A stretch of DNA of 64,000 bases from Bacteroidales bacterium (GCA_017395245.1 JAFPVR010000091.1:17072-81071); one strand, 5' to 3'; shown: positions 3,130-54,250, counted from the stretch's first letter. Numbers and translations are program-made. Notes: generated from the sequence alone by a model not told the origin.

Positions 3130-3197
3130 GTTATTTTTACCCTTGCTTTTGCGGGTGCAAAAATACATTTTTTTTCTATCTTTGCAAAAAAAAAGTG

Positions 3198-3737
3198 ATG
3201 AAAATTTATACACATACTGGAGACAATGGAACCACCTCATTATCAGATGGTTCACGCATTTCAAAGGGCAGCGTTTTGCTGCATGCATACGGCACTGTTG
3301 ACGAGCTGAACAGCTTCATCGGGGTCGTGATTTCGCAAGTTTCGGACAATTTCCTGACAAAAGTGCAAAACGAGCTCTTCGTTGTCGGGGGCATGTTGGC
3401 CACCCCGGTGGAGAACTGGGAGAAGTACTGGAAGGTGGAACGCCTGGCGGAGTTCACCAAGGAAATCGAACGGGAGATCGACCGGCTGAGCGCGGAGCTC
3501 GAGCCCATGCGCGGGTTCATCCTTCCGCAGGGCAGCCGCCTCATCGCCGACACCCACGTGTGCCGCACCGTATGCCGTCGCGCCGAGCGCTATGTGGTGC
3601 AACTTTTGGAGGAGAACGAGGCCTACAAACCGGTGCAGGTTTTGCTGAATCGGTTGTCCGATTTCTTCTTTATTTTGGCCCGATTTTTCCACAAAAAAGA
3701 AAAAATTTCCGAAACCCTCTATCAATCAGCGAAATAA
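3198..3737 (+). CDS. PduO-type ATP:cob(I)alamin adenosyltransferase
   Basis: N-terminus MKIYTHTGDNGTTSL and the YGTVDELNSFIGV motif. A TATCTTTG -7 box lies at 3177-3184. Confidence 0.85.
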   Translation: MKIYTHTGDNGTTSLSDGSRISKGSVLLHAYGTVDELNSFIGVVISQVSDNFLTKVQNELFVVGGMLATPVENWEKYWKVERLAEFTKEIEREIDRLSAELEPMRGFILPQGSRLIADTHVCRTVCRRAERYVVQLLEENEAYKPVQVLLNRLSDFFFILARFFHKKEKISETLYQSAK

Positions 3738-5294: not shown

Positions 5295-5313
5295 TTAGTA
5301 GCGGGGGCAGGAC
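5295..5313. repeat. att core, distal copy (TTAGTAGCGGGGGCAGGAC)
   Basis: Identical to 50258-50276, which covers the 3' end of tRNA-Met. Confidence 0.85.
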
Positions 5314-15010: not shown

Positions 15011-15314
15011 CCGGTTCTAAAAGTTCCGACCAAAGCAACCCTGCAGACCCGCCTTATCTGGCGGGCTTTTTTTTGCCCGGGATGGAATGTTAGAAAAAAA
15101 ATCAAAAACTTTCCAGCAAAAAACGGCCCGAACTTTTCGAACCATTAGAACCGTTTATAAATCAGCGAATTAAATAAAAAACAGGCTCCGAACTTTTCCG
15201 AACTTTTAGAACCACCAGAACCTTTCCGAACCGCTTTCGAACCAGTTTTTTCTATTCATGGCATTGAATATCAGTGATTTAATTTTTGGTTCAGTCGGTT
15301 CGAAAAGTTCGGAG
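15011..15314. repeat. Iteron cluster (CCGAACTTTTCGAACC and GAACC half-sites in both orientations), a candidate replication origin
   Basis: Copies at 15012-15029, 15129-15144, 15188-15214 and 15298-15313, plus at least 5 extra (A/C)GAACC half-sites. Confidence 0.5.
15048..15074 (+). terminator. Rho-independent terminator after the primase gene
   Basis: CCCGCC-ttatct-GGCGGG followed by a T8 run. Confidence 0.7.
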
Positions 15315-19534: not shown

Positions 19535-19587
19535 CCACGTTTTTTTTCTCTCTCAACCATATTGGTAATAGTATTTCATTTGTTTGG

Positions 19588-19618
19588 AAAGAGCTTCCTC
19601 TCCCGGGAAGCTCTTTTT
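19588..19618 (+). terminator. Rho-independent terminator
   Basis: AAAGAGCTTCC-loop-GGAAGCTCTTT followed by TT. Confidence 0.6.
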
Positions 19619-19640
19619 CGAACGGCAATCAACTCCTGAC

Positions 19641-20507
19641 ATGAACGATATACAACAATGGCTCGACAATCCCGGCCACGACTACTCCGCCGGCGTCACC
19701 CTCTTCGCCCGTTACAGCAAGAACAGGGCGCTGGTGCGCTATTTCCAATCCGGAACCGCCCGGTTCCGGATGGGGAAACTGGTTTACGAGATGGGGAAAC
19801 TGGTGAAGACGACACCATCGGCGAAACGCATCGTAGAGACGCAAAATTTTGCGTCTCTACAACCACAGCAATCGGAACGGCCTCGTGTAACATCCGAGGT
19901 TACTTCCGAGGTTACTTCCGAGGTTACTTCCGAGGTTACTTCCGAGGTTTCTCTTCCGAGGTTTATCCTCGATGCCAAGAAGGAGGTGGCCTCCCTCTAC
20001 ACCCTCATCGACAAACGGCACCGGGAACTGTACGACCTGGGCACCTCCAATGCCGATGACGTGGTGCGCAAACGGAAGAAGATCCTCGACGGGCGCAAGC
20101 CCGCCATCGATCGTGCCGACCGCCTCTACCGACTGAAGGAGGCGTGGATCAAGCTGGAAGACGGCCCCGCCCGGGAACGGGTGGCCAGCGATATCCGGGA
20201 GTTGCTGGCCGCACCATGGAAGGAGCAGCCGACGATGGTCGCACCCGTAGAGACGCGCCATGGCACGTCTCTACGATCCGACGTGTCCGGGTTGTCCGAC
20301 CTTAACCTCACCAATCGCCGCTCCGCCCTCCGTTCCTCCATCACCAAGGCTCAGAACATGCTGCAGTACCAGACCATCCGCAAGGGAGACTCCCCTACCC
20401 CGATGCCGCCCGGACCGAAACGCGACGAGTATGAACGGAAACTGGCCGCGCTGAAGGCGGAGCTGACAGCCGTGTGTGACGAGCTGGAAAGGAGGAAACC
20501 GGCATGA
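19641..20507 (+). CDS. Hypothetical protein carrying two REP palindromes and two tandem repeats in frame
   Basis: ATG at 19641. The peptide contains IVETQNFASLQ, (TSEV)x5 and PVETRHGTSLR. Confidence 0.5.
   Translation: MNDIQQWLDNPGHDYSAGVTLFARYSKNRALVRYFQSGTARFRMGKLVYEMGKLVKTTPSAKRIVETQNFASLQPQQSERPRVTSEVTSEVTSEVTSEVTSEVSLPRFILDAKKEVASLYTLIDKRHRELYDLGTSNADDVVRKRKKILDGRKPAIDRADRLYRLKEAWIKLEDGPARERVASDIRELLAAPWKEQPTMVAPVETRHGTSLRSDVSGLSDLNLTNRRSALRSSITKAQNMLQYQTIRKGDSPTPMPPGPKRDEYERKLAALKAELTAVCDELERRKPA
19833..19860. repeat. REP-like palindrome copy 3 (perfect 28-bp GTAGAGACGCAAAATTTTGCGTCTCTAC)
   Basis: Read directly in the sequence; lies inside a CDS. Confidence 0.9.
19893..19966. repeat. 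12-bp tandem repeat (TCCGAGGTTACT) x5-6
   Basis: Encodes the TSEV repeats. Confidence 0.9.
20247..20274. repeat. REP-like palindrome copy 4 (GTAGAGACGCGCCATGGCACGTCTCTAC)
   Basis: Inside a CDS. It is the reverse complement of copy 5. Confidence 0.9.
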
Positions 20508-21103: not shown

Positions 21104-21106
21104 TCT

Positions 21107-22825
21107 ATGAACCTCTCCGTTTCCGCCACCAAATCCCAAATCCTTGGGCTGATGCTCTGCCCCAAGTACCACGTCTCCGTCGAGGGGCGCGGTACCGGCA
21201 AGAGCTTCGACATCGGCTTCACCATGGATAAGATCGTGCGGGCGATGCCCCGGTCGATCACGTCCATCACCGGCAAGACTTACGGCCAGCTGCTCACCAA
21301 CACCCTGCCGTCGTCACTCAAGCTGCTCGGCAAGATGGGCTACGTGAAGGACGGCAACTTCGTAGTGTGCAAACGTCCGCCCTCTTGGTTCAAGAGCCCC
21401 TACGAGCAGATCAACCGCTACGACAACATCATCAGCTTCAGCAATGGTGCCTGCTTCGCTCTGGTGAGCCAGAGCGAGAAAGGCAGCGGCCGTGGTAAGA
21501 ACATCGACTTCGAGATCATGGACGAAGCCCTTACCATCAACAAGGAGCAGTACGACTACGAGGTGTCGCCCGCCAACCGTGGCAACAACGAGTATTTCGG
21601 TCCCCGCAGCGCCAACCCGGTGAGCTTCCACCACGGCTTCAAGTACTCCACCTCCATGCCGCCCACCAAGGCCGGCCGCTGGATCCTGGACTACGCCAAA
21701 TACTACGAAGAGGAAAAGGGCATCAACCTGTTCAGCGTGTGGAACCGCATCGTGAAGATGCAGATCGAGCTGCTGAAGCTGACGGATCCGCGTCAGTTCG
21801 CCGATGCCTGGAACGAGATCATCCGCCTCAAGCACAAGATACAGCCGTTCCTCAGTCGGGAAGGACTGCTGTTCACCTGCAGCAACGCTTTCGACAATCT
21901 GGAGAACCTCGGTCTATCCTACATCCGGCGGGAGTACCAGAAGCAACCCTACCTCACCTTCCTCATCGAGGTGATGAACTACCTGTTCGACAAAGTGGAG
22001 GACTGCTTCTACAGCATCAACGAGGAAAAGCAGATCTACTATGCTTCCGACCAAAGCAAGATGATTATGGAAATGGCCAGGGAGACCAACTTCGACTACA
22101 AGCCGGAAGATATCCTTGGTTCCTCGATATACGACCGCGACTGCAACCCGTCCGTTCCCTTGGAGATTGTACCGGACTGGGGCTCGGCCATCTGTCTCTT
22201 CAGTGTGAGCCAGACCCGGAACTTCGACTTCGTGTCCGGACTGACCACCCAGCAGGAAGTCCACAACATCATCAACGAGTTCTTTGTGAAGCCCGACGGA
22301 AACAGCAACGTGCTCATCAAGGAGCTGTGCGCCAAGTTTAGCGATCACTACCGCAAGCACACCAACCGCGAGCTGCACTACTACAAAGACAAATACGGCG
22401 ACAGCCGCAACCCCAACATCGTGAAGTCGAAGACCTACAACCAGCTGGCCATAGAGTACCTGACCGCTGCGGGTTGGACGGTGATCGAGCACGAGCACCC
22501 GGGCATGGAACCGCCGCAGAGTGACAAGTACGTGCTCATCAACAGCATCCTGAAGGAGGACAATCCGGATTTGCCGCTCTTCCGCATCAACGGCACGCGC
22601 TGCCACTTCACCCTCATCTCAATGAACAACGCGATGGTGAAGGAGTACGACGGCCAGCTGAAGAAAGACAAGAGCAGCGAACGCAAGGGCAGCGGCGTCC
22701 TCCCAGAGGAGGCCACCCACTTCTCTGATGCTGTCGATAAGGTCCTGTGGACCAAGTACGGCATCCTCGTCAAGCGCGACGGCGGCGACTTCGTTCCGGT
22801 GCGGATCGGCGGGAGGGTGCTGTAG
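21107..22825 (+). CDS. Terminase large subunit
   Basis: Walker A-like VEGRGTGKSF and Walker B NIDFEIMDEA. 572 aa. Confidence 0.75.
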   Translation: MNLSVSATKSQILGLMLCPKYHVSVEGRGTGKSFDIGFTMDKIVRAMPRSITSITGKTYGQLLTNTLPSSLKLLGKMGYVKDGNFVVCKRPPSWFKSPYEQINRYDNIISFSNGACFALVSQSEKGSGRGKNIDFEIMDEALTINKEQYDYEVSPANRGNNEYFGPRSANPVSFHHGFKYSTSMPPTKAGRWILDYAKYYEEEKGINLFSVWNRIVKMQIELLKLTDPRQFADAWNEIIRLKHKIQPFLSREGLLFTCSNAFDNLENLGLSYIRREYQKQPYLTFLIEVMNYLFDKVEDCFYSINEEKQIYYASDQSKMIMEMARETNFDYKPEDILGSSIYDRDCNPSVPLEIVPDWGSAICLFSVSQTRNFDFVSGLTTQQEVHNIINEFFVKPDGNSNVLIKELCAKFSDHYRKHTNRELHYYKDKYGDSRNPNIVKSKTYNQLAIEYLTAAGWTVIEHEHPGMEPPQSDKYVLINSILKEDNPDLPLFRINGTRCHFTLISMNNAMVKEYDGQLKKDKSSERKGSGVLPEEATHFSDAVDKVLWTKYGILVKRDGGDFVPVRIGGRVL

Positions 22826-22865
22826 AATCCGCAAATTTGCGCCTGTACAAAATTCCATATTGATT

Positions 22866-22916
22866 ATCAGCGTCTTGCATTGTCCCAACGGGTTTCTTCG
22901 TGTGGTTGTACTTTTG
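22866..22916 (+). promoter_or_regulatory. Phage promoter motif copy 2 (ATCAGCGTCTTGCATTGTCCCAAC-N19-TACTTTTG)
   Basis: See copy 1. Confidence 0.55.
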
Positions 22917-22944
22917 CCGCAAAAAACTACACGAAGCGACAAAT

Positions 22945-23568
22945 ATGACAAACGATGCGTTGAACCTCGGACTGCTGCCGGTGGATGAAACCGGTGCTTA
23001 CAACCTGCCAGTGGTGGGTACTGATGCCGTGCCAACTGCAGACAGCCTCATTCCGTTCAACCGGGCGAAGACCTGCCTGAGACGGGATGTGGGCGTACAC
23101 TTCTTCATCGATGACTACCAGTTCGAGCGGGTGTGGAAATCTCCGCAGCTCTATGTGGAGATGCTGAAGCGGTACCGTTTTGTCTGCGCCCCGGATTTCA
23201 GTCTCTACTTGGACATGCCGATGGCGGCCAAGATTTGGAACGTCTATCGCAGCCGCCTTATCACTGCCTACTGGCAGAAGCAGGGGGTGAAGGTGGTGCC
23301 CGTGTTGCAGTGGGCGGATCCTGCCACGTGGGAGTTCTGCTTTAAGGGCGTTACGCCAGGTGGAACGGTGGCTGTGAGCACATTAGGTGCGGCTCGCAAC
23401 AAACTGACCAAACAGATCTGGAAATCGGGGATGTCGGAGGCCATCCAGAAACTGCGTCCTGCCGCCATACTCCTGTATGGCAGACCTATCAACTTCAATT
23501 TTGGAAATATCCATGTTGTATGTTACACTAACGAGGTGTTGGAAAGGAGGTCTGGTCATGGGCGGTAG
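22945..23568 (+). CDS. DUF4417-like protein
   Basis: VHFFIDDYQFERVWKSPQLYVEMLKRYRFVCAPDFSLYLDMPMAAKIWNVYRSRLITAYWQKQGVKVVP. Confidence 0.6.
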   Translation: MTNDALNLGLLPVDETGAYNLPVVGTDAVPTADSLIPFNRAKTCLRRDVGVHFFIDDYQFERVWKSPQLYVEMLKRYRFVCAPDFSLYLDMPMAAKIWNVYRSRLITAYWQKQGVKVVPVLQWADPATWEFCFKGVTPGGTVAVSTLGAARNKLTKQIWKSGMSEAIQKLRPAAILLYGRPINFNFGNIHVVCYTNEVLERRSGHGR

Positions 23569-24034
23569 AGGTGGATATTTGGGCGGGTCGAGTTCTGGTA
23601 CAGGAGACTCTTCAATTGGCTTCAAAAAGACATACGAAAGTGATAACGGAGGCACCGTTTATACGGAAAAATCAAGAATTGAGCAATCCAATATAAACAA
23701 GCAGGAAAAAGCCAAATATGAAAAGGAGCATGATATGTGCAAACATTTGGCTGACAATGGGCATGATATAGTTCATCTTGATGACAGAAATCTATCGGAA
23801 GGCTCATACGATATATTGCTCGATGGAGAAAAGGCGGAGTTGAAGAGTATGAAAGGTACAACGAATATAGGCAGGGAAGGCAAAGATGCTATACGTAAAC
23901 AAAAGGCCGATTTTGTAGTGTTTAAATTCGAGAGCTTTTCTGCAAAAACAAATAGAGAAATCGAAAAATTAGTAAAGAACAACATACATGGATGCTATTA
24001 TGTTGAGGGGCAAAAAGGATTGGAATGGTTTTAA
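23558..24034 (+). CDS. Putative PD-(D/E)XK-like nuclease with a Gly-rich N-terminus (low GC)
   Basis: ...HDIVHLDD...YDILLDGEKAELKS... fits a D-x(n)-E-x-K arrangement. GGAAAGGAGG lies upstream of the ATG. Confidence 0.35.
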   Translation: MGGRGGYLGGSSSGTGDSSIGFKKTYESDNGGTVYTEKSRIEQSNINKQEKAKYEKEHDMCKHLADNGHDIVHLDDRNLSEGSYDILLDGEKAELKSMKGTTNIGREGKDAIRKQKADFVVFKFESFSAKTNREIEKLVKNNIHGCYYVEGQKGLEWF

Positions 24035-24162
24035 AATCAAGAAATCCCTGCTACAGCAAGGATTCCAGGGTGGTCCTTCCCCCGCTCAAGGCGAGTTGTA
24101 ATGAACCCTTCCGCGAAAACGGAATCGCGGCAAAAATACAAAAATTCTGAAAACCAATAAAT

Positions 24163-24546
24163 ATGGAATTGGAAATCGAACTAAAAAGCAAATACATGAA
24201 TCGCTTCAAACAGGAGTTTAACCGTGCCTGCCTGCAAATAGGGATTCCAGCATTGAGCGAGGATACCTGTGCCAAAATATTGGCGGTGGTATATCTCCAC
24301 GACAACGAGCAGTTCGCGTTCAGCGGCGCATTTGCTGCTGATATGGAGTACATTCAGAACCGCTATCACATACATGGCGCTGGAACACCGGAGGCCGACT
24401 TTGTGGACAAGGTGGTGCGTTACATCCACGAGCTGGAGGAATATGCCAGAACGCATGTGGAGGAATCCACGCAAAACGGTCTGTTCCCTGCCAAGCCACA
24501 ATGGGCAATCGAGATGTTTAGAAATATGTACGGAATAAGAATATAA
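24163..24546 (+). CDS. Hypothetical protein (low-GC island)
   Basis: ORF only. Confidence 0.45.
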   Translation: MELEIELKSKYMNRFKQEFNRACLQIGIPALSEDTCAKILAVVYLHDNEQFAFSGAFAADMEYIQNRYHIHGAGTPEADFVDKVVRYIHELEEYARTHVEESTQNGLFPAKPQWAIEMFRNMYGIRI

Positions 24547-24549
24547 GTC

Positions 24550-24900
24550 ATGGGCAGGAAAGAATACTCTTCGTGGTTTCGATGGACAGAGGAACGCTTG
24601 CGTTTTCTATATGAAAACTTTGCCAGTAATTCCAACCAAAGCATCGCGGACGCACTAGGCTGCAAAAAAAAATGCGTCATCGATAAGGCTCACAAATTGA
24701 GGTTGAAAAAGGACAATGATTATTTAGTCATGGCTCATGCACATGCTGGAATCCGTTATGGAATAAAGGGATGTAATCTTTCGGAAGATGCATTGTCCAG
24801 AAGAAAACAAACCAGGCAGAAAACCGTACATATTGAAAAAATAAGATTAAAATACGGTATTCATCAAAGGACAAATCTCAAATTAAAAAACATTTACTGA
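24550..24900 (+). CDS. Putative HTH DNA-binding protein (low-GC island)
   Basis: WTEERLRFLYENFASNSNQSIADALGCKKKCVIDKAHKLRL looks like a Myb/GcrA-type HTH. Confidence 0.4.
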   Translation: MGRKEYSSWFRWTEERLRFLYENFASNSNQSIADALGCKKKCVIDKAHKLRLKKDNDYLVMAHAHAGIRYGIKGCNLSEDALSRRKQTRQKTVHIEKIRLKYGIHQRTNLKLKNIY

Positions 24901-24901
24901 T

Positions 24902-25783
24902 ATGATTTACGGATATTTGCGTGTGTCGTCCGACGAGCAGGACGTAAACAGCCAGAAGCAGGGCGTTGAGGCTTTCGCGAAGGAGCATGGATGGACTATT
25001 GACGAATACATCTCTGATGAAGGCGTTAGCGGTGGCAAAGATCCCGACAAACGGAATCTCGGTCCGTTGCTGAAGAAATTGAAAAACAATGATGTTCTTA
25101 TTGCAGCAGAGATCAGCCGTTTGGGTCGTGACCTGTACATGGTAATGGACATCCTGCACTTCTGCATGGAGCGCGGCTGTGTAATCCACACTGTCAAAGA
25201 TCGATTCACATTGGGGGATGATATCCAGAGCAAAGTACTTGCTTTTGCTTTCGGATTGGCCGCTGAGATTGAACGTCAGATGATTCGTCAACGCACTCGT
25301 GAAGGTTTGAGATTAAGAATGAAAATGGGAGTACTGTTAGGTCGTCCTATTGGTTCTCCGAACAGTTTGGAAGCACAAAAATACGGTGAATGGAAGGACA
25401 AACTTAAACAAATGGTGGAATGGCAGATGGGACCGAGGCAAATAGCTAATGTTATTGGGTGTGACAGGAACACGGTGAACCGTCTTGTTGAAAGATGGGG
25501 TTACGACGAGCTGTGGAAATATAGAGCCAATTATGCCAAAAACGAAAAAGAGTATAGGGCTAAGCACCGTGTTCCAACGTACAAAGACGAACCTTATAAG
25601 ATAGTGCCGTTAGACCGAAAAAAGACAATTACTTGCATAGAAGCAGGCTTAACATTGCCGCAAATCGCAGAGCAAATGCCTGAGTTCTCGTATGAGCAGG
25701 TATATGATACGGTTCTTTGTGACAGTGAATTAAACACTCTCTATCGCCAGCACGCTCAAAAGAAGCTGGTGAAGAAGAAGTAA
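24902..25783 (+). CDS. Serine recombinase (resolvase/invertase family) with an extended C-terminus
   Basis: MIYGYLRVSSDEQ (catalytic Ser), ...ISRLGRD..., ...ERQMIRQRTREGL..., and HTH RQIANVIGCDRNTVNRL. Confidence 0.85.
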   Translation: MIYGYLRVSSDEQDVNSQKQGVEAFAKEHGWTIDEYISDEGVSGGKDPDKRNLGPLLKKLKNNDVLIAAEISRLGRDLYMVMDILHFCMERGCVIHTVKDRFTLGDDIQSKVLAFAFGLAAEIERQMIRQRTREGLRLRMKMGVLLGRPIGSPNSLEAQKYGEWKDKLKQMVEWQMGPRQIANVIGCDRNTVNRLVERWGYDELWKYRANYAKNEKEYRAKHRVPTYKDEPYKIVPLDRKKTITCIEAGLTLPQIAEQMPEFSYEQVYDTVLCDSELNTLYRQHAQKKLVKKK

Positions 25784-25967
25784 TCCCGCCCCACCCTCAT
25801 AGGGCCACCCCCTGTCATATTTCCTACCCGACCCGGGGTGGAAATTTCCATCCAAAGTAGGGCGAGCACCGGCACGATTGTCGCTCGACGCCTTTCGGAA
25901 AAAGTTGATTTTGGGTCAAAACGTTGAATTTTAGGAAAATGCGAAAAATTTCATGTTAAGAAATTCG

Positions 25968-26003
25968 TGTCCCATCTCGTTATGTGCGCCCGTTGTATTT
26001 TTG
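25968..26003 (+). promoter_or_regulatory. Phage promoter motif copy 3 (TGTCCCATC-N19-TATTTTTG)
   Basis: Same spacing as copies 1, 2 and 4. Confidence 0.5.
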
Positions 26004-43779: not shown

Positions 43780-44301
43780 ATGGCAAAGACAACAGACAAC
43801 GAGCAATACTACTATTTCAAGATGCGGATCGGAAAGCCGTACGAAATCAAGGCCACGCCCATCCACATCAACACGGTCATCAACCGCATCTATGTGGAGA
43901 TGACTGCCGCGCAGCAGGCCTTCTATTTGGAGAACCCCACGGCCACGGTGCAGGAGGTGTGGAACTGCGCACTTACACCGCCGTATACGCCGCCGGCCCC
44001 CGACGTGGCGGAATACGCGGCGCGGAAGGTGGAAGAGCTGCGGGAGGCGTGCCACAGCGCCGTGGGAGTCACGACACTGGAATTCGCCATGGCCATCGAC
44101 AAAGTTGAGAATCCCACGGCAAGCTGCTACTACGGCCTTGCCGATGCGCAGCGTGTTGTCAGCGCCTTCCGCGCCCAGAGCAAGGCCGCGATGGCGGTGC
44201 TCGACACGTACCGCCCGCAGATTGAGGCGGCGGCGAGTGTGGCGGCAGTGGATGCGCTGCTCGCGGCGGCGAGGGCCGCGCTGGAAGGAGGTGCGGCATG
44301 A
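43780..44301 (+). CDS. Hypothetical tail-associated protein
   Basis: ORF only. Confidence 0.4.
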   Translation: MAKTTDNEQYYYFKMRIGKPYEIKATPIHINTVINRIYVEMTAAQQAFYLENPTATVQEVWNCALTPPYTPPAPDVAEYAARKVEELREACHSAVGVTTLEFAMAIDKVENPTASCYYGLADAQRVVSAFRAQSKAAMAVLDTYRPQIEAAASVAAVDALLAAARAALEGGAA

Positions 44302-44477
44302 CAGCGGCCTTAGACATCAGGATGCTTGTGGCCACCGCCGCGAAGGCACTGGCGGTGGCCGCGCTGATAACCGCCGGTGCAATGGCGTTGCAACGGGGTT
44401 CCACGCACGTTTCAACGGCGGTCCGCGACACATGGGCGGCCGACAGCAGCTGGACGGTGAAAGGAGGATGGAGATGA
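44298..44477 (+). CDS. Small membrane protein (59 aa, below the ORF-track cutoff)
   Basis: ATGA-coupled ATG at 44298 with GGAAGGAGG upstream. Sequence MTAALDIRMLVATAAKALAVAALITAGAMAL... Confidence 0.4.
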   Translation: MTAALDIRMLVATAAKALAVAALITAGAMALQRGSTHVSTAVRDTWAADSSWTVKGGWR

Positions 44478-44649
44478 GACGGGAACACAATATTTCAATA
44501 CAGGTGTAAAGCCAAACCCTAATTTTAAATGGTATTATGTTTTCCAATGGCTGGATTTAAACAGCGGTGATAGCAATTTTAATGGTTGCGAAGATTGGAG
44601 CTCTACTTCAACGGATATTATCATTAGAATTGCACAAAGGCCTGACATT
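44461..44649 (+). pseudogene. Start-less fragment of a receptor-binding cassette, open in frame with the next ORF
   Basis: Translates to ..ETGTQYFNTGVKPNPNFKWYYVFQWLDLNSGDSNFNGCEDW.., which aligns to residues ~30-80 of ORF 45342 (SQGNQFIITGVCLGPNLKWELDAQWVEFNDNNAFGYEEW). Confidence 0.5.
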
Positions 44650-45306
44650 ATGAGAAAAGAACATTTAAACACTGTTTCAGAGGATATACCGTTCGTCGAG
44701 AATCTTATTTTCCATACTCCGCTGACTGAAGGAGATTTGACGGACCATGTGAGCGGGGTGTCGCCAACACCCGGCACAGGCGGCTGTACGTGGGATTCCG
44801 CGTACGACGCATATCGAATCTTCACCACAGCCGAGTACCAGCATTGCTTGATATATAACATTCCCGACGGCATAGATTTCAAGTCATCGGAAAACTACAA
44901 CTTTTCAATTTACACAAAGATTTTCATCAATTCTTACAATGGCACGATTGACTATGCAATATTGTATGACGGCATCAACTGGCCGACCAGTAATAATTCA
45001 TACAGTATTGGTGAAACGCACAGGTACAACACATCGACGGACAACCCAATAACAAAGAATGCCTGGCATGAGATATGTATGGCAAGATATGAAGACAATA
45101 TATTTTTTTATGTTGACAAAGCATTGTCAAGAACCACGCAAACATCGCAATACCCTGCATTTAATATTTCCGACGCCGTTGCAAAGAATAAACACAAGAA
45201 TCTTGCAGTCGGGACTTCAATATACAATTACAAATTCAACATATACATCAAAGATCTTCGTATATACGATAGAGCGTTGTCGGCTTCAGAGATTGTGCAG
45301 TTGTAA
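44650..45306 (+). CDS. LamG/concanavalin-like receptor-binding cassette 1 (low GC)
   Basis: C-terminal ...IYIKDLRIYDRALSASEIVQL is typical of LamG-type domains. Confidence 0.5.
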   Translation: MRKEHLNTVSEDIPFVENLIFHTPLTEGDLTDHVSGVSPTPGTGGCTWDSAYDAYRIFTTAEYQHCLIYNIPDGIDFKSSENYNFSIYTKIFINSYNGTIDYAILYDGINWPTSNNSYSIGETHRYNTSTDNPITKNAWHEICMARYEDNIFFYVDKALSRTTQTSQYPAFNISDAVAKNKHKNLAVGTSIYNYKFNIYIKDLRIYDRALSASEIVQL

Positions 45307-45341
45307 AGCAAAGGGTATTACATTAACCAATATCTGCTAAT

Positions 45342-45989
45342 ATGAAAAGAGAAAGTTTAAATTCAGAGGCGTCTCCAAACCAGCTCCCCCTGCCATCTGG
45401 ATATACCAAGTTGAACTACATAGAAAGCCAGGGAAACCAGTTTATCATCACGGGTGTTTGTTTGGGGCCGAACCTTAAGTGGGAGCTTGATGCTCAGTGG
45501 GTTGAATTCAATGATAACAATGCTTTTGGATATGAAGAATGGAATCAAGGTGCTGCGAACACAAGAGTTGTATGCCGTTTAAATTTTACTAAGAGCAAAA
45601 CTTTAAGCATTGTATATGGAAACATTCCGGCAACAGATCCGAATGGCTTTAAGCAATATAATTTACCTGGCGCCGATGCGACTGTCAGGCATGTTTTATA
45701 TGTGGAAAGCGGGAAACAGTGCATCGACGGTGTCGAAGTCATGCAAGCAATAATGACTTACACGAGCACCGGTTATATAATGTTTTTCGAAAGCGGTTTT
45801 GCGAACGGAAGCGGTGCTTATATATGTAAAAAGACCAGAGTTTATGGTTCGTGGATGAAAAACGGAGACACACTTGTCAGAAATTTTGTGCCTGCACTCA
45901 GGCTATCCGATAGCAAGCCCGGCTTGTACGATACGGTCAATGATGTGTTTCATACCAACGCAGGAACCGGGGAATTTTTATACGCATAA
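45342..45989 (+). CDS. Receptor-binding cassette of the 'LPxGY..L.YIES.G.Q.I.TG' family (low GC)
   Basis: LPLPSGYTKLNYIESQGNQFIITGV... Confidence 0.5.
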   Translation: MKRESLNSEASPNQLPLPSGYTKLNYIESQGNQFIITGVCLGPNLKWELDAQWVEFNDNNAFGYEEWNQGAANTRVVCRLNFTKSKTLSIVYGNIPATDPNGFKQYNLPGADATVRHVLYVESGKQCIDGVEVMQAIMTYTSTGYIMFFESGFANGSGAYICKKTRVYGSWMKNGDTLVRNFVPALRLSDSKPGLYDTVNDVFHTNAGTGEFLYA

Positions 45990-45991
45990 AT

Positions 45992-46690
45992 ATGAGGAGA
46001 CAGCAATTCAAATCTGAACAGTCGTACATCGACTGGTTGAAGTCCAAGGGGTGCCGGTTCTACGCCCCCATGGACGAGGAGCACGGCACTGACGAGCTGA
46101 TACAGGGCTGGACATTCAGCGTCAACAATGGGTGCTCGTGTGTTTGGGATTCTAACAAGAGAGCACACTTGATAACAGGCAGCAGCTCATCATCGAAGGC
46201 TTCCGCCATGTGGAGCGGAAAAAGCATACAATCGCAAAACGTCGGAGAAATGGCTATCAATACCCAGCATGTTCTTCTTTGTGATTTTAATCTAACTTCT
46301 TCTGGTAGTTGGACTCCTGGTGCTAGCTACGGAGGCAGTGATGATTATACTACGAACATATCGGGCACGTCATCATCAAGAAATGTGCTTTGCGCCAGTC
46401 AAAAAGAATTCTATACCAGAAACGGTAAGTCGTTTTCTTATAATATTTGGTATACTTATTTTCAATGGTATAACAAAAGCAACAGTAGAAGATGCGATAT
46501 AACAGCGCAAGGGATTACACTTCTTGAGGCTGATTCTAACCCAAGCTGGACTTTTGTCTACAATCAGAATTGCGACACGCATGTGAGCTTGATGGCTGGC
46601 TGCTCGGGCTATGTTCGCAACTTGTACATCTTCGCCACGGCATTGAGCGATGAGGACATTATGACGATTTACCGCCACGATCACCAATAA
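45992..46690 (+). CDS. LamG/concanavalin-like receptor-binding cassette 2 (low GC)
   Basis: C-terminal ...YVRNLYIFATALSDEDIMTIY. Shares C(T/V)WDS with cassette 1. Confidence 0.5.
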   Translation: MRRQQFKSEQSYIDWLKSKGCRFYAPMDEEHGTDELIQGWTFSVNNGCSCVWDSNKRAHLITGSSSSSKASAMWSGKSIQSQNVGEMAINTQHVLLCDFNLTSSGSWTPGASYGGSDDYTTNISGTSSSRNVLCASQKEFYTRNGKSFSYNIWYTYFQWYNKSNSRRCDITAQGITLLEADSNPSWTFVYNQNCDTHVSLMAGCSGYVRNLYIFATALSDEDIMTIYRHDHQ

Positions 46691-46693
46691 ACT

Positions 46694-49021
46694 ATGATTA
46701 GAATATACGTCAAAGGCCAGCAGCTCGCTCTGAAGCGCGACACCACGCTCACGGTGGAACTCAATAACGCCCTGTTCGCCTCGCCGGATATTGAGGGAGA
46801 CATCTCGTTTAGCTTCGGTCTGCCTGTTGAGGGAAACGAGCAGATGCTTGGCTTCGCAAACCTCCCACAAATAGGTAGTATGAAAAAGACGCCCTGCCTC
46901 GTGTGGTGCAACAACAGCCAGAACTGGGCCGGGGAACTGGTGGTCCAGAAAACCGGGCACGACAACATCTCTGCTGCGTTGGTCATCAACCCCTATCCAG
47001 AAGGGTTCTCCGGACGCAGCCTCACAGCCAACGAGGACGCCGACATTGTGATTTCCGAAAGCAAAGAGACGCACAACGCCGCGTGGGAAGAGTTTTTGAA
47101 GGCCTCGGTGAATGACCCTGATGTGAAGTTTGCTCCGTTCATCAACGAGGATGGCTATGGAAGCGAGAACGAAGACTTTGGCCGCTGGAATGGGATACAA
47201 AGGACGAAGGTGGTGAACTCACTGTTCTTCACCGATGCAGGTACACTTCTGGACACGATTTCACATCCATTCTCGAAAGCGCACAACGAGCTGCTCGACG
47301 TTAGTGTTATCGACACAGTGGACACCGACGGTAAACCTTCTTATTCCGAATATACGGAAATGAACCAGCTGGCCTTCTGTCCGCAGATCCGCATCGCCCG
47401 CATATTGTCGTTATGGTGCCGGAACGCAGGCTATACGTTCATCGACCACCTTGGTGATGACCTGTCCGGAACATTCCTGCAGTCGCAGAAATCTCTGGAC
47501 GGCACGTCAGCGCAATATGATACGGATTCCACAGATCGCATTAGTGGCTATTCTGAAGGATATGCGACGGACATCCAGAACTGGCAGTGGTACTTCAGTT
47601 TGATTCCTGAAGAAGGATCTGAGGCGTATATCAATAATGCTACAGTTTCCATACAGGAAACGGGGTGGTGGATGTTTCGAATCACAGCGGACTACCGCTC
47701 AATCGCCTATCAAATACAGAGGTATTTCAGCATAGGCTACCGCGCCTGGCTCGCCATCTATCAAGGATTTGATAAGCTGTATGAGTATTATATCGGAACT
47801 TTGCCCACCAAAAACTTCAAGGTGGATTTGGAATGGAAACAATATGTGTCGGATATCTGGACGGCCGCCCCGTTCAGAATCGCCATATATTTCAAAGATG
47901 GGCAAAACACGAGTTATTACCTTAGAGAATCCCTCAAAACAAATCAGCCGTCCATACCAATGACGGTTGACATACGTAAAATTTCAGCTGACCAGGTGCA
48001 GTCGGGTTTCAACATTTTCCGCAGCAAGTTCCGGATTCCGGAACTACTCCCGGAGGTGACCAACGCCTCGTTCCTGAAGACTCTGCTCGAAACCATGGGG
48101 TTGTGCTTCTTCGTGTCCGGGAAGCAGAAGACCATCGAGGTTGTTCCGTATAGCAGGATAAGCAATGCCAAGTCTTTGGATCTGACACCTTACGAACTCA
48201 CGCGTGAAACCGAGACAATCTCGCCGGATGAGACGAAGCGGACATTCCGGCTCAAACCGCTGAAAGACGAAGACTACAACAAGGGTTTGAGGATTGATGA
48301 CGTTGCCGTCAAACTCCCTGACCCGTATGCAAACCACGAGCACTATGTCCTGCGCACCAAGACGAACACCCTGTACCACGCTTCAAAGCAGGAGGGTGCT
48401 GTCGAAAACTGGGTGGAAGGATGGGAGGAATACAGCGGCAACCCCGACAGGCTGGAGGTCGGCAGCGGGGACGAAGAGAACAGGGAACCGTCGGTGGCCA
48501 TCCCGCACCAGCGACTGTTCAGCACAAACCGCCGCCATCCCGACACAGATATCATCTCTGGCGAGACACCGCAGCTCATGGTGGCCGACTTCACCATCAG
48601 CAGCGACCTTTACAACACAACGGAAAAAACATCCGCCATCATTCTGACCCAATACCGTGGATTCCGATTGCGGCAGTACGGAGCCAGTGCCACCGAAATC
48701 AAGAACGAAGTGATGCTGCCGGTCTGGGGTGACGATTTCGCATTGAAGGCAAAAGGGGCCAACTCCATCGGCGAGAAGTATGTGAAACCCGTGCTGGAAT
48801 TGCTCGGCCATAAGACAGTAACCTACAAGTTTCGGCTTCCGACCGCCATGATACAGCAGGTAGAGGACCTCCTTCGCCCGTCGGAGCTCGACCCGGGAAT
48901 GCAGACGCGGTTCCTGATCGTGAGAAATGTGAAGACGGTGCCGAAAAGAATCACCTTCCAGATAGACAACGACATTGATGACACAGTGCTGTGTCAGATT
49001 GAGACGGTGAAGGTGTATTAG
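46694..49021 (+). CDS. Large tail/baseplate structural protein
   Basis: 775-aa ORF at the end of the tail module. Confidence 0.5.
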   Translation: MIRIYVKGQQLALKRDTTLTVELNNALFASPDIEGDISFSFGLPVEGNEQMLGFANLPQIGSMKKTPCLVWCNNSQNWAGELVVQKTGHDNISAALVINPYPEGFSGRSLTANEDADIVISESKETHNAAWEEFLKASVNDPDVKFAPFINEDGYGSENEDFGRWNGIQRTKVVNSLFFTDAGTLLDTISHPFSKAHNELLDVSVIDTVDTDGKPSYSEYTEMNQLAFCPQIRIARILSLWCRNAGYTFIDHLGDDLSGTFLQSQKSLDGTSAQYDTDSTDRISGYSEGYATDIQNWQWYFSLIPEEGSEAYINNATVSIQETGWWMFRITADYRSIAYQIQRYFSIGYRAWLAIYQGFDKLYEYYIGTLPTKNFKVDLEWKQYVSDIWTAAPFRIAIYFKDGQNTSYYLRESLKTNQPSIPMTVDIRKISADQVQSGFNIFRSKFRIPELLPEVTNASFLKTLLETMGLCFFVSGKQKTIEVVPYSRISNAKSLDLTPYELTRETETISPDETKRTFRLKPLKDEDYNKGLRIDDVAVKLPDPYANHEHYVLRTKTNTLYHASKQEGAVENWVEGWEEYSGNPDRLEVGSGDEENREPSVAIPHQRLFSTNRRHPDTDIISGETPQLMVADFTISSDLYNTTEKTSAIILTQYRGFRLRQYGASATEIKNEVMLPVWGDDFALKAKGANSIGEKYVKPVLELLGHKTVTYKFRLPTAMIQQVEDLLRPSELDPGMQTRFLIVRNVKTVPKRITFQIDNDIDDTVLCQIETVKVY

Positions 49022-50136
49022 AATTGGATGGTATTCCACTCTAATATCTTCTTCGCATTCGATCTGTGAGTGTATTTTTCTGTCATTTCTAACGAACTGT
49101 GATCAGCTAGTTCCTTAACAAGCTTGGCGGGTACGCCCGCCTCCAACATTTCGGTGATTCCAGTATCCTTCAAGGAATAAAACTGGTACGACGAAGGCAG
49201 CCCAAGCGCATCGCGCATTTCCTTCCAACGCTCGGCGACACGGGTCGGGGCAGTGTACTTCGGCCCAGGGGCGTATGTATTTCGGTCAGAGAAGACATAC
49301 CATTGGGACGGCAAGCCGCGCAACGTCCTGAAATACTCCATGATTTCCTCCGGAACACCGATAATCCTGTCACAGTGGTTTTTAGCGACAAAAGACGGAA
49401 TCTTCAGCATACATTGGTCGAAGTCAATGTACCCTACCCTGATCATCATGATTTCCTTCGGACGGATTAGCAGACGATAGCACAACAGCATTACATATAT
49501 ATATAAAGGTGTACGCTCATCGAACCATGCACGGATATCCTTCCTGACCGACGGAGGTATAACGACCCTTATCTTCCTGTCCACCTTGCGTTTCGGAAGG
49601 TCTTCGGCGGGATTTTCCTTGATGTAGCCGCGCTGCACAAAGAAATCGAACAGCGTGTACAGATAAGAAGAGTAGTTGTTGTAACTGCGATTGCTGAGAT
49701 TGACATGCAAGTCAGTGTATTCGAGATAGCGGAGGAGATGGTCGCGATCGATCTGGAAGCAATAGATATGGTCGAGATGCTGCTTCTTCAGATAATCCAG
49801 GAACAACTGCGAGAAAGACCTGTATGATTTCATGGTGGCGGGCCTCAATATCTTCTCTTTTGCATCGAGAAACTTCTGGATGCACTGCGACACGCTGAGC
49901 GCCCTGGCGGCCAACGCCTCGACAAACGGGTTCCAACCACCCCAAAGTTTCTCGTTGATCTTGTGGCAAAGGGATTTCGCGTACCTGTCGCGGTCGGAAG
50001 ACTTCCTCACATGGTTGACACGGTATTTAACGCGCTGCAGCTTTCCCGTCTCCGGATTGAGCGCATAGTAGTAGACAAAGCAATCTTTGCCCTTGTGGTA
50101 AGCGCACGGCTTGAAATCGATGAATGGAGTGGACAT
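49018..50136 (-). CDS. Tyrosine-type site-specific integrase
   Basis: C-terminal catalytic region ...LKDTGITEMLEAGVPAKLVKELADHSSLEMTEKYTH. Adjacent to a tRNA and an att repeat. Confidence 0.9.
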   Translation of the reverse strand: MSTPFIDFKPCAYHKGKDCFVYYYALNPETGKLQRVKYRVNHVRKSSDRDRYAKSLCHKINEKLWGGWNPFVEALAARALSVSQCIQKFLDAKEKILRPATMKSYRSFSQLFLDYLKKQHLDHIYCFQIDRDHLLRYLEYTDLHVNLSNRSYNNYSSYLYTLFDFFVQRGYIKENPAEDLPKRKVDRKIRVVIPPSVRKDIRAWFDERTPLYIYVMLLCYRLLIRPKEIMMIRVGYIDFDQCMLKIPSFVAKNHCDRIIGVPEEIMEYFRTLRGLPSQWYVFSDRNTYAPGPKYTAPTRVAERWKEMRDALGLPSSYQFYSLKDTGITEMLEAGVPAKLVKELADHSSLEMTEKYTHRSNAKKILEWNTIQF

Positions 50137-50261
50137 ATTTTTTTTTCCTTTCTATGTTTTTTGCGCATTGGAAAGGAAGTGTGAATTGTATCGGTATTGT
50201 ATCAGTAAAATTGCCGAAAACCATCTAAACAAATGATTTTCAGCAATTTACATTTTCTTAG

Positions 50262-50333
<72 letters not shown>

Positions 50334-50525
50334 ATGTTTCAGGCCGCAAAAATACACTTTTTTCTTTTTTCCGACACATTCTGCAGAAAAAAAATTTTCA
50401 TATCAAAATTTTTGTATCTTTGCCACCCCAATTGAAAGAGGCTCTTCAATTGAATTACAAGTAGTTAACCTCATTGTTTAATCTTAAAAAAGCCCCAGTC
50501 TCAGGGCAAATTGAGACAACAATTT

Positions 50526-54100: not shown

Positions 54101-54154
54101 ACTTTGTAAACTGTGATCTGTGATGAGTGATCAGTGAACTGTGATTAGTGATTA

Positions 54155-54193
54155 GAAAAAAGTCCCCGTATTTTGAAATGCGGGGACTTTTTG
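54155..54193. terminator. Bidirectional terminator between pepD and the acyl-CoA synthetase gene
   Basis: A-run, then AGTCCCCG-loop-CGGGGACT, then a T-run. Confidence 0.75.
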
Positions 54194-54250
54194 TGTTAAA
54201 GCAATCGTGTTTAGTGACAGTTCACTGTTCACAGATCACAGATCACATCT

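Follow-up and report, generated by a model that had tools for sequence, protein, structure and literature searches.

A layered accessory-gene island between the terminase and portal genes of a rumen Bacteroidales prophage, with a nuclease-like gene and an extended serine recombinase

Introduction

Why should a prophage that already possesses an integration system carry a second, unusually long site-specific recombinase amongst its late genes? The question is raised by a 64,000-nucleotide stretch of DNA from a rumen Bacteroidales bacterium (GCA_017395245.1, JAFPVR010000091.1:17072-81071; hereafter the window, with all positions counted from its first letter), in which an AT-rich group of genes lies between the terminase gene terL and the portal gene of a prophage. 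A previous interpretation made from the DNA alone (the sequence-only reading) had placed this group at 23558-25783 and described it as a nuclease-like open reading frame (ORF; here o158), two small ORFs (o127 and o116) and a serine recombinase of 293 residues (SR293). It had been proposed to be a nested mobile cassette carrying a defence or toxin gene, or to encode an invertase comparable to Mpi of Bacteroides. Based on a comparison with relatives, including 23 related loci found via terL in IMG/VR and in rumen and gut Bacteroidales genome bins, the explanation that we consider fairly probable as a whole is a layered cargo island at a terL hot spot, consisting of a late DUF4417-nuclease pair and a transplanted recombinase set that would act in trans.

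Results

Setting and composition of the island

The host of the island is a ~45-kb prophage at a tRNA-Met gene, extending from ~5.3 to 50.3 kb and bounded by a 19-bp direct repeat. The tyrosine integrase gene and the attachment-site (att)-like repeats (Table 1) account for integration, which leaves SR293 surplus to that task, as the sequence-only reading had argued; SR293 is not the integrase. In 400-bp windows, the guanine plus cytosine (GC) content is 0.37-0.50 across 23.4-25.9 kb versus 0.53-0.60 on both flanks, and the 2,226-bp interval originally drawn has a GC of 0.432, the fifth lowest among 890 prophage windows of equal size (mean, 0.527; standard deviation, 0.041). The only comparably low-GC stretch of the prophage is found at 44.3-46.7 kb. 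GC at third codon positions (GC3) is 0.86 for terL and 0.79 for the portal gene in the backbone, compared with 0.68 for DUF4417, 0.37 for o158, 0.58 for o127, 0.39 for o116 and 0.49 for SR293. The sharp drop reported inside the GC-rich late region is thus confirmed on both measures, and the four ORFs that had been called within it are all present at their positions.

A cargo hot spot between terL and its terminator

Alignment with the relatives places the inserted DNA at 22,826 to ~25,797 (~3 kb), including the DUF4417 gene and its promoter copy, so that the bounds first drawn, which enclose only the AT-rich part, were too narrow. Relatives with an empty site diverge from the window immediately past the terL stop codon (blastn matches end at 22812-22827), and the sequence that follows this stop codon in the relatives, CATAGGGCCACCCC...GTCATATTTCC...GGAAATTTCC, starts at ~25,798 in the window. 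As a terminator-like hairpin (25799-25815) lies in the sequence that normally follows the terL stop codon, the island is situated between terL and its terminator.

A late-promoter-like motif, TGTCCCA-N21-TAyTTTTG, occurs five times in the window (16579, 22881, 25968, 33103 and 37307), always on the plus strand and before late genes, versus a chance expectation of 0.01; we take its 3' half to correspond to the Bacteroidetes -7 box, TAnnTTTG, known from the literature. Two of the five copies bracket the island, as had been claimed, but the left copy lies upstream of DUF4417 and outside 23558-25783. In two relatives (L014 and L023) the motif moves with DUF4417, with homology beginning at 22880.

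In 13 of the relatives (L001, L002, L005, L009, L011, L012, L014-L018, L020 and L023) the site is empty, with terL followed by o104 and the portal gene after 195-533 bp, and several others hold different cargo at the same position (Table 1), in every case with a GC below that of the neighbouring terL. As judged by these sequence comparisons, the terL/o104 site is a hot spot that accumulates different cargo in this phage group, and the island is neither conserved and syntenic in all relatives nor free of a compositional break. The hot-spot occupants together resemble a repertoire of anti-restriction and toxin-antitoxin cargo.

The intergenic backbone between terL and o104 also contains a perfect 12-bp palindrome, TGGAAATTTCCA (25839-25850), the GGAAATTTCC core of which is kept in L001, L002, L011, L015, L016 and L049, cargo present or not. 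Cargo inserts on either side of this region, with HigBA on its right in L013 and L035. The palindrome could be a candidate regulatory or packaging site.

Two separable layers

The island divides into two layers. Layer 1 (22.88-24.15 kb, ending at 24146) holds the promoter motif, DUF4417, o158 and a conserved non-coding element; layer 2 holds o127, o116 and SR293. The closest relative found, L049, has layer 1 at the same terL site and is 93.9% identical to the window over positions 21106-24146; it resumes the window sequence at 25798 and is without the o127-o116-SR293 set. Layer 1 is also present in L002 and L015, at 74-76% identity and upstream of the gene for p307 (an ORF product encoded upstream of the putative small terminase subunit gene, terS). 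Within layer 2, the segment with o116 and SR293 is 98.8% identical to part of L034, a 7.3-kb contig whose remaining genes (IstB-like, DnaB and small ORFs) have no similarity to the window by tblastx. This segment thus has a closer match in an unrelated phage than the backbone has in L049, the nearest relative, pointing to a recent exchange. A further contig of 1.8 kb (L035) consists of an o127-like remnant, a recombinase gene, the junction region and then HigB.

The relatives L050-52 have the gene order DUF4417, a protein with the same MGGRG start as o158 and a different body, o127, a 119-residue ORF (o119) and a 298-residue recombinase, at ~70-75% nucleotide identity and upstream of p307. The same five-gene order at a different position indicates that the block is old and has occupied two positions. 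The polymorphism expected of a cassette is seen in three forms, with layer 2 absent in L049, the whole island absent in 13 relatives and the block elsewhere in L050-52. The GC of the recombinase set is below its surroundings in every context examined, and the unequal GC3 of the island genes was counted as support for layering.

No direct or inverted repeats and no common core were found at any of the boundary pairs compared (window versus L015, L034 and L049). The joints vary with the comparison (24146 against L049, ~24160 against L015 and 24524 against L034) and coincide with start codons, stop codons or a terminator. Shifting joints at gene boundaries without shared repeats are the signature of ordinary modular phage exchange rather than of precise site-specific insertion. 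As far as the compared sequences go, the island is not one cassette: the nuclease travels with DUF4417, and o127-o116-SR293 is a separate layer.

A DUF4417 gene coupled to polymorphic small proteins

The DUF4417 protein, which has no PDB sequence match, also matches PHROG 8680/940, and the 207-residue form of its gene is the one called in L049. PHROG 940 is a ParB-DUF4417 fusion labelled as a nuclease, and fusions of this domain to ParB-type domains are frequent in phages (bioRxiv 10.1101/2025.10.10.680097). In nearly all of the relatives the gene is located near the terminase genes, either before p307, between terS and terL, or after terL, so that it is better described as a near-core gene that changes position than as cargo.

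The sequence-only reading had assigned o158 to nuclease-like proteins from a D..ExK arrangement, and this assignment holds. The family is small (21 clusters); residues E57, D85 and K96 are invariant and position 94 is either E or D, giving the canonical E...D...(E/D)xK of PD-(D/E)xK nucleases. The match to Pfam CdiA_C (PF18451; E 8e-4, 19.9 bits) is under the cut-off of 26.6, and some family members carry a precomputed PF18451 match. An AlphaFold2 (AF2) model of o158 (mean predicted local distance difference test score, pLDDT, 86.9) is confident save for the Gly/Ser-rich first 18 residues, and its best and sole strong Foldseek match in the PDB is 4g6v_A, the CdiA-CT toxin of Burkholderia pseudomallei 1026b (E 1.8e-3; probability, 1.0; template modelling scores, 0.53/0.62). 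No sign was seen that o158 is a virion structural protein. The CdiA-CT of 4g6v is a tRNA-cleaving enzyme, and o158 may act as a late-expressed effector that cuts RNA or DNA. It stands alone, with no fused delivery region, and in the relatives compared no conserved protein gene follows it, only the non-coding element and then variable genes; no immunity gene is thus evident. A role of o127 as the immunity protein of o158 was rejected on gene association, as L002, L015 and L049 have o158 without o127.

The gene that overlaps the 3' end of a DUF4417 gene of the type found in the window always starts with MGGRGA(Y/F/R) (L002, L010, L014, L015, L023, L050-52 and the window). Behind this start there are at least four unrelated bodies: the CdiA-CT-like body, the L023 type, and the L010/L014 and L050 types, each of which has a hydrophobic stretch. 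Such polymorphism suggests an effector slot. Copies of DUF4417 without an o158-like partner are found directly before terL in L014, L015 and L018. Behind a second type of DUF4417, which sits between terS and terL, the next gene starts with MAKDYGGDR or MSG..DKG, and the MSG..DKG gene of L011 is CdiA-CT-like (35% identity). The suggestion of defence cargo found no support in PADLOC-DB, in which none of the six proteins searched matched a defence-system component (only noise at E ~0.03).

Read on the minus strand, the conserved non-coding element ends directly behind the o158 stop codon. It occupies the boundary between the layers. It is kept in L015, L002, L010, L014, L018 and L049, its hairpin shows compensatory changes, and a terminator scan gives a match within it on the minus strand. 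No Rfam family was matched in 19-27 kb and the core of the element has no exact match in IMG/VR. On these sequence features it is a candidate ~90-nt small RNA. In relatives it precedes p307 or a tyrosine recombinase gene.

A serine recombinase with an additional domain

SR293 matches Pfam Resolvase over residues 2-144 (E 6.8e-33; 114.2 bits versus a cut-off of 23.3) and, slightly under the cut-off, HTH_23 over residues 175-199 (23.6 versus 24.6 bits), a helix-turn-helix (HTH) region covered by the PHROG 125 and Mpi profiles. The segments RVS(9), RLGRD and ERQxIxQRTxEG align with gamma-delta resolvase, and R7, S9, R73, R76, E124, R125 and R131 are invariant in 17 family members, so that SR293 is not catalytically dead. 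The best curated family is NCBIfam Mpi (NF009949; E 6.7e-66, residues 1-198), with 221.9 bits under a cut-off of 272. The last 95 residues fall outside of the Mpi model and keep the pattern YKD...TIPQIAE..PEYTYEQ.YDT.LCD.EFN.LYR, with a second HTH-like stretch. As this extension is conserved, the extra length relative to classical invertases, estimated at about 100 residues in the sequence-only reading, represents a genuine domain. Across the family, the sequence varies most in the first predicted HTH. Compared with large serine integrases, which have recombinase and zinc-ribbon domains, there are only weak partial matches to Ccr/XisF catalytic domains, and the length of 293 residues falls short of the >400 expected.

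More than 7,800 proteins of the SR293 family were retrieved, the top 120 of which are all 279-321 residues long and 64-100% identical, and relatives are encoded on 328 IMG/VR contigs. Amongst GenBank phages, a protein search returned no full-length homologue and a megablast search with 19.5-29.5 kb gave no match. The sampled family contexts are all co-directional early phage gene arrays with methylases, Thy1, dUTPase, RecT, SSB, antirepressors and primase, and a DnaG-type primase gene starts within 3 kb downstream of the recombinase gene in 31 of the 69 viral loci with enough room. The gene is often near contig ends, and a role as the integrase of other phages was considered and dropped (the distances vary, many of the contigs are redundant and the gene is mid-contig elsewhere).

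The o127 protein, from a family of 214 clusters at 50% identity, is predicted to be all-helical (confident AF2 model; pLDDT, 91), with no match amongst PDB sequences, PDB folds, the BFVD viral fold library, Pfam or PHROGs, and no homologue in any GenBank phage record by protein search. In 38 of 80 viral loci the recombinase gene has an o127-family gene directly next to it, 33 times on the downstream and 5 times on the upstream side, usually with an overlap of a few bases; conversely, a recombinase gene, in some cases of classical length (200-230 residues), is adjacent in 22 of 39 o127 loci. These counts make o127 a frequent, non-obligatory partner of the recombinase family and not of o158. To our knowledge there has been no study of either protein. 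The third member, o116, has the N-terminal pattern WTEE...IA..LG...V..K...L, which we read as typical of Myb/GcrA-like HTH proteins, with a weak match to PHROG 323 (Pfam GerE scores 0.028; no PDB sequence match). Homologues of o116 occur only in L034 (99%) and L050-52 (46%) and are absent from the 80 viral loci.

Search for recombinase targets

Inverted repeats in the whole window comprise only repetitive extragenic palindrome (REP)-like sequences, origin-like iterons and weak pairs, none of which bracket a switch, in agreement with the earlier statement that no convincing inverted repeats surround the recombinase gene. In the 80 viral loci, exact inverted repeats of at least 16 nt within 10 kb of the recombinase gene are restricted to iteron clusters 3' of primase genes, and no recurrent repeat-flanked segment was found in the same range. 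The published Mpi repeat consensus, ARACGTWCGT, has 0 matches in the window.

The origin-iteron-like sequence of the window is a low-GC stretch directly after the primase gene (15128-15313), with direct and inverted copies of CCGAACTTTT(C/A)GAACC, and iteron clusters 3' of the primase gene are also found in many recombinase-carrying viral loci (e.g., TCCTACAA repeats in L062-L076). The REP-like palindrome, GTAGAGACGC-(4-8 nt)-GCGTCTCTAC, has seven copies (4049, 12191, 19827, 20247, 30142, 56000 and 63785) in prophage and host flanks alike, some of them within ORFs (e.g., p307, where it is read as ETRHGTSL).

Table 1. Features of the island, its junctions, its prophage and the alternative cargo in relatives. 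Positions refer to the window unless a relative is named.
Feature	Position	Strand	Description
Left junction	22823-22880	+	terL stop codon (22823-22825), then island-specific DNA with palindrome CGCAAATTTGCG (22830-22841)
Late-promoter-like motif, DUF4417-module copy	22881-22916	+	TGTCCCA-N21-TACTTTTG
DUF4417 gene	22945-23568	+	207 aa from likely ATG 22945 (mechanical ORF from GTG 22900); Pfam PF14386, E 9.6e-63
o158	23558-24034	+	158 aa; PD-(D/E)xK nuclease-like; start overlaps DUF4417 stop by 11 nt
Conserved non-coding element	24035-24146	minus	TATTTTTG box 24138-24131, 11-bp hairpin 24066-24041, T-run
Layer 2 (o127-o116-SR293)	24147-25797	+	In L049, 247 bp with a 66-aa ORF instead
o127	24163-24546	+	All-helical; unnamed family; frequent neighbour of the recombinase family
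Exchanged segment, o116 and SR293	24524-25790	+	Identity to L034 by blastn
o116	24550-24900	+	N-terminal Myb/GcrA-like HTH (weak); PHROG 323, E 1.6e-5, residues 11-56
SR293	24902-25783	+	293 aa; catalytic domain, predicted HTH and ~95-aa C-terminal extension; Pfam Resolvase (PF00239)
Backbone segment directly 3' of terL stop codon in relatives	25798-25967	+	Terminator-like hairpin 25799-25815; palindrome TGGAAATTTCCA
Late-promoter-like motif of o104/portal operon	25968-26003	+	Backbone
Tyrosine integrase gene	49018-50136	minus	Pfam Phage_integrase; adjoins tRNA-Met
att-like 19-bp direct repeat TTAGTAGCGGGGGCAGGAC	5295-5313 and 50258-50276		Right copy within 3' end of tRNA-Met
Cargo at terL/o104 site, L010	L010 9717-13434		DUF4417, different small protein, 313-aa tyrosine recombinase, truncated N6-methylase
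Cargo at terL/o104 site, L013	L013 9717-13556		Three reverse-strand ORFs and a HigB/HigA pair
Cargo at terL/o104 site, L019			DUF4417 and unassigned ORFs
Cargo at terL/o104 site, L003, L004 and L007			ArdC-like and RadC-like genes (by eye), with or without methylase

Other features of the window

The prophage is flanked by host genes for a cobalamin adenosyltransferase (3195-3737) and ribosomal protein S1 (50511-52490). Its second low-GC island (44300-46700; ~0.43), directly upstream of a 775-residue ORF without a Pfam match (46694-49021), has three ORFs of ~215-230 residues, the first with a ConA-like lectin (Laminin_G_3) domain, and is probably a variable receptor-binding region. The p307 gene (19584-20507) contains a perfect tandem TSEV x5 (VTSEVTSEVTSEVTSEVTSEV); identity of p307 to its relatives is 22-83%, and most alignments begin past the first 8-22 residues. 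The intergenic region of two convergent ORFs in the host flank (54105-54247) contains a 36-nt inverted repeat made up of TGTGATC/TGTGA units, its arms 64 nt apart.

Discussion

The island is most readily explained as layered cargo. Layer 1 would be a late-promoter-driven DUF4417 gene and a small gene coupled to it in reading frame, which may supply a nuclease effector late in infection, and would be closed by the non-coding element. Layer 2, a set that in other phages usually lies in an early replication module, would have entered by ordinary recombination at gene boundaries, with its o116-SR293 portion traded very recently with an unrelated phage. SR293 would be an active small serine recombinase acting in trans on a site away from its gene, probably together with o127. 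Given the replication-module context of the family, SR293 is rated slightly more likely to act on replicating phage DNA, by resolving multimers or forming circles, than to invert promoters in the manner of Mpi. SR293 resembles the gamma-delta/Tn3 resolvases, which provide its best sequence match of solved structure (1zr2, E 1.3e-12) and with which its catalytic residues align, and its family usually lies beside replication genes and origin-like iterons, as in plasmid multimer-resolution systems. Unlike those resolvases, SR293 carries an additional C-terminal domain, lacks a res-like site in the sequences searched and has an o127-family partner, for which those systems offer no equivalent.

Several observations weigh against this explanation. 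The best curated match of SR293 is to the Mpi invertase family and not to a resolvase, and the protein also matches PHROG 125, labelled as a DNA invertase (E 1.8e-39). No res-like or otherwise shared motif was found near the recombinase genes: across ten independent loci, 11-mers with up to one mismatch in the 500-bp flanks did not outscore shuffled sequence. A search for a Bacteroides-type promoter (TTG-N19-TAnnTTTG) upstream of o127 found none. The gene order shared with L050-52 implies that the two layers have long been together, which may reflect functional coupling or relocation of the entire block and is unexplained by independent modules. Part of the island may, in addition, be a relocated near-core gene (DUF4417) and not cargo.

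The invertase matches give weight to another reading, in which SR293 is a phage-borne Mpi-type invertase that flips promoter or coding segments in the host or the phage (e.g., surface loci affecting superinfection) with o127 as an accessory or directionality factor. Such a role would suit a gene surplus to the integrase and a family in which the HTH is the most variable part, as expected if its members bind different sites. SR293 aligns over the whole 200-residue body of Mpi, the master DNA invertase of Bacteroides fragilis, which acts on promoter-flanking inverted repeats at many loci; it shares with Mpi the order of catalytic domain then predicted HTH, and likewise comes from the Bacteroidales. 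Unlike Mpi, which is ~200 residues long and ends after the HTH, SR293 scores below the family cut-off, has an additional conserved 95-residue domain and is phage-borne, and the window contains neither Mpi-type repeats nor inverted repeats bracketing a switch; none recur in the 80 viral loci. Gin, Cin and Pin are likewise small serine recombinases carried by phages besides their integration systems, but their genes lie beside an invertible tail-fibre segment with inverted repeats, of which there is none in the window or within 10 kb of the gene in the 80 viral loci, and the replication-module position of the family is unlike theirs. We regard inversion as unlikely. The cassette originally proposed, in which SR293 would insert and excise the island or layer 2 along with a toxin or defence gene, draws on the sharp-edged presence and absence of the DNA, on the block at two positions (after terL and upstream of p307 in L050-52) with layer 2 directly to the right of the same non-coding element at both, on the nearly identical o116-SR293 in an unrelated phage and the persistently lower GC of the recombinase set, and on the recombinase gene beside HigBA in L035. 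Andersen et al. (PLoS Biol 2026, PMC13552941) reported genetic linkage of small serine recombinases with defence and toxin-antitoxin genes and postulated a role for them in mobilisation; this reported linkage also speaks for a cassette, and the position beside a toxin-like gene in the window and beside HigBA in L035 resembles the published cases, yet the fit of the window is loose, with the recombinase and the toxin-like gene in separable layers and in a phage rather than a chromosomal defence island. Of the original proposal, the status as accessory DNA stands, but the island is not one unit, has no att-like ends and offers no sign that the recombinase moves it: the boundaries lack repeats or a shared core and differ between comparisons, the toxin-like gene belongs to the DUF4417 layer and occurs without the recombinase in L002, L015 and L049, no defence system was found by PADLOC, and in most phages the recombinase gene lies inside conserved early operons, not at a cassette end. 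A self-mobilising cassette is accordingly very unlikely.

The pair in layer 1 can be read in two further ways. As a toxin/immunity or abortive-infection pair of o158 and a neighbour, it would shield the lysogen from other phages, in keeping with the CdiA-CT-like fold and intact PD-(D/E)xK of o158, with a gene position as polymorphic as those of arms-race genes and with HigBA amongst the other hot-spot occupants. In fold and in its E...D...(E/D)xK residues o158 is like CdiA-CT(II) of B. pseudomallei 1026b (4g6v; PF18451); it differs in being stand-alone, in having no CdiI-like immunity gene after it, in its sub-cut-off Pfam score and in being a predicted phage late gene coupled to DUF4417. The late-promoter motif means that the pair is expected to be silent in a lysogen, o127 tracks the recombinase and not o158 (DUF4417 and o158 are missing from the 38 of 80 recombinase loci at which o127 is present), neither a conserved downstream protein gene nor a PADLOC match is present, and DUF4417 lacks an o158-like partner before terL in L014, L015 and L018. 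Shielding of the lysogen is therefore highly improbable. Alternatively, DUF4417 and o158 might be a packaging-associated nuclease set comparable to the HNH endonucleases that assist terminases, and so belong to virion assembly and not to cargo. The DUF4417 gene does adjoin terS or terL in nearly all relatives, PHROG 940 is labelled a nuclease and the pair has a late-promoter motif, but the gene after DUF4417 is swapped for unrelated bodies (some with a hydrophobic helix) or missing, unlike an essential packaging factor, and the best structural match of o158 is a tRNA-cleaving toxin and not a DNA-processing enzyme; we judge a packaging role quite unlikely. Decidedly doubtful, finally, is the more ambitious idea that recombinases of the SR293 type (~290-300 residues, with a second C-terminal DNA-binding-like domain) and o127 form an undescribed two-component recombination system of Bacteroidales phages, normally beside primase and origin and here captured with a DUF4417-linked polymorphic nuclease effector into a block that shifts from one hot spot to another beside a conserved small-RNA-like element. 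If SR293 and o127 were to recognise the non-coding element or the terL-portal palindrome, the block would represent a novel type of phage-genome cargo cassette driven by a recombinase.

In syntenic phages such as the lambdoid and P2-like groups, morons and hot-spot cargo are variable accessory genes at fixed intergenic positions. The island is like these in that its site is fixed and is empty or differently filled in relatives, its GC and GC3 are atypical, a predicted promoter of its own is on the left (22881) and a terminator-like hairpin on the right (25799); it is unlike them in being layered, with a relocated near-core DUF4417 and a recombinase set normally found in replication modules. 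As an object, phage cargo at a hot spot, the island is thus of a familiar and fairly ordinary kind. What is new is the recombinase subfamily with a second C-terminal domain, absent in full length from cultured phages, and the orphan-fold partner o127, likewise absent from them, along with the DUF4417-coupled polymorphic gene slot and the small-RNA-like element that marks the joint of two layers. The closest relative of SR293 from a cultured phage is ORF065 of Bacteroides phage B124-14 (NC_016770), annotated as a DNA invertase, which is 52% identical over the catalytic domain and is encoded in the early region beside a replication-initiation gene; unlike SR293, it is only 217 residues long.

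The comparison maps both the site and the manner of accessory-gene exchange in a family of rumen Bacteroidales prophages, with a fixed entry between the terminase gene and its terminator. Current concepts would change only if the recombinase turned out to mobilise cargo or to act as a switch of host genes. The polymorphic small proteins coupled to DUF4417 are a candidate position for late-expressed effectors in these phages, and the recombinase and partner set recurs on hundreds of contigs from uncultured gut and rumen phages; knowledge of its target would add a phage-side player to DNA rearrangement in the Bacteroidales.

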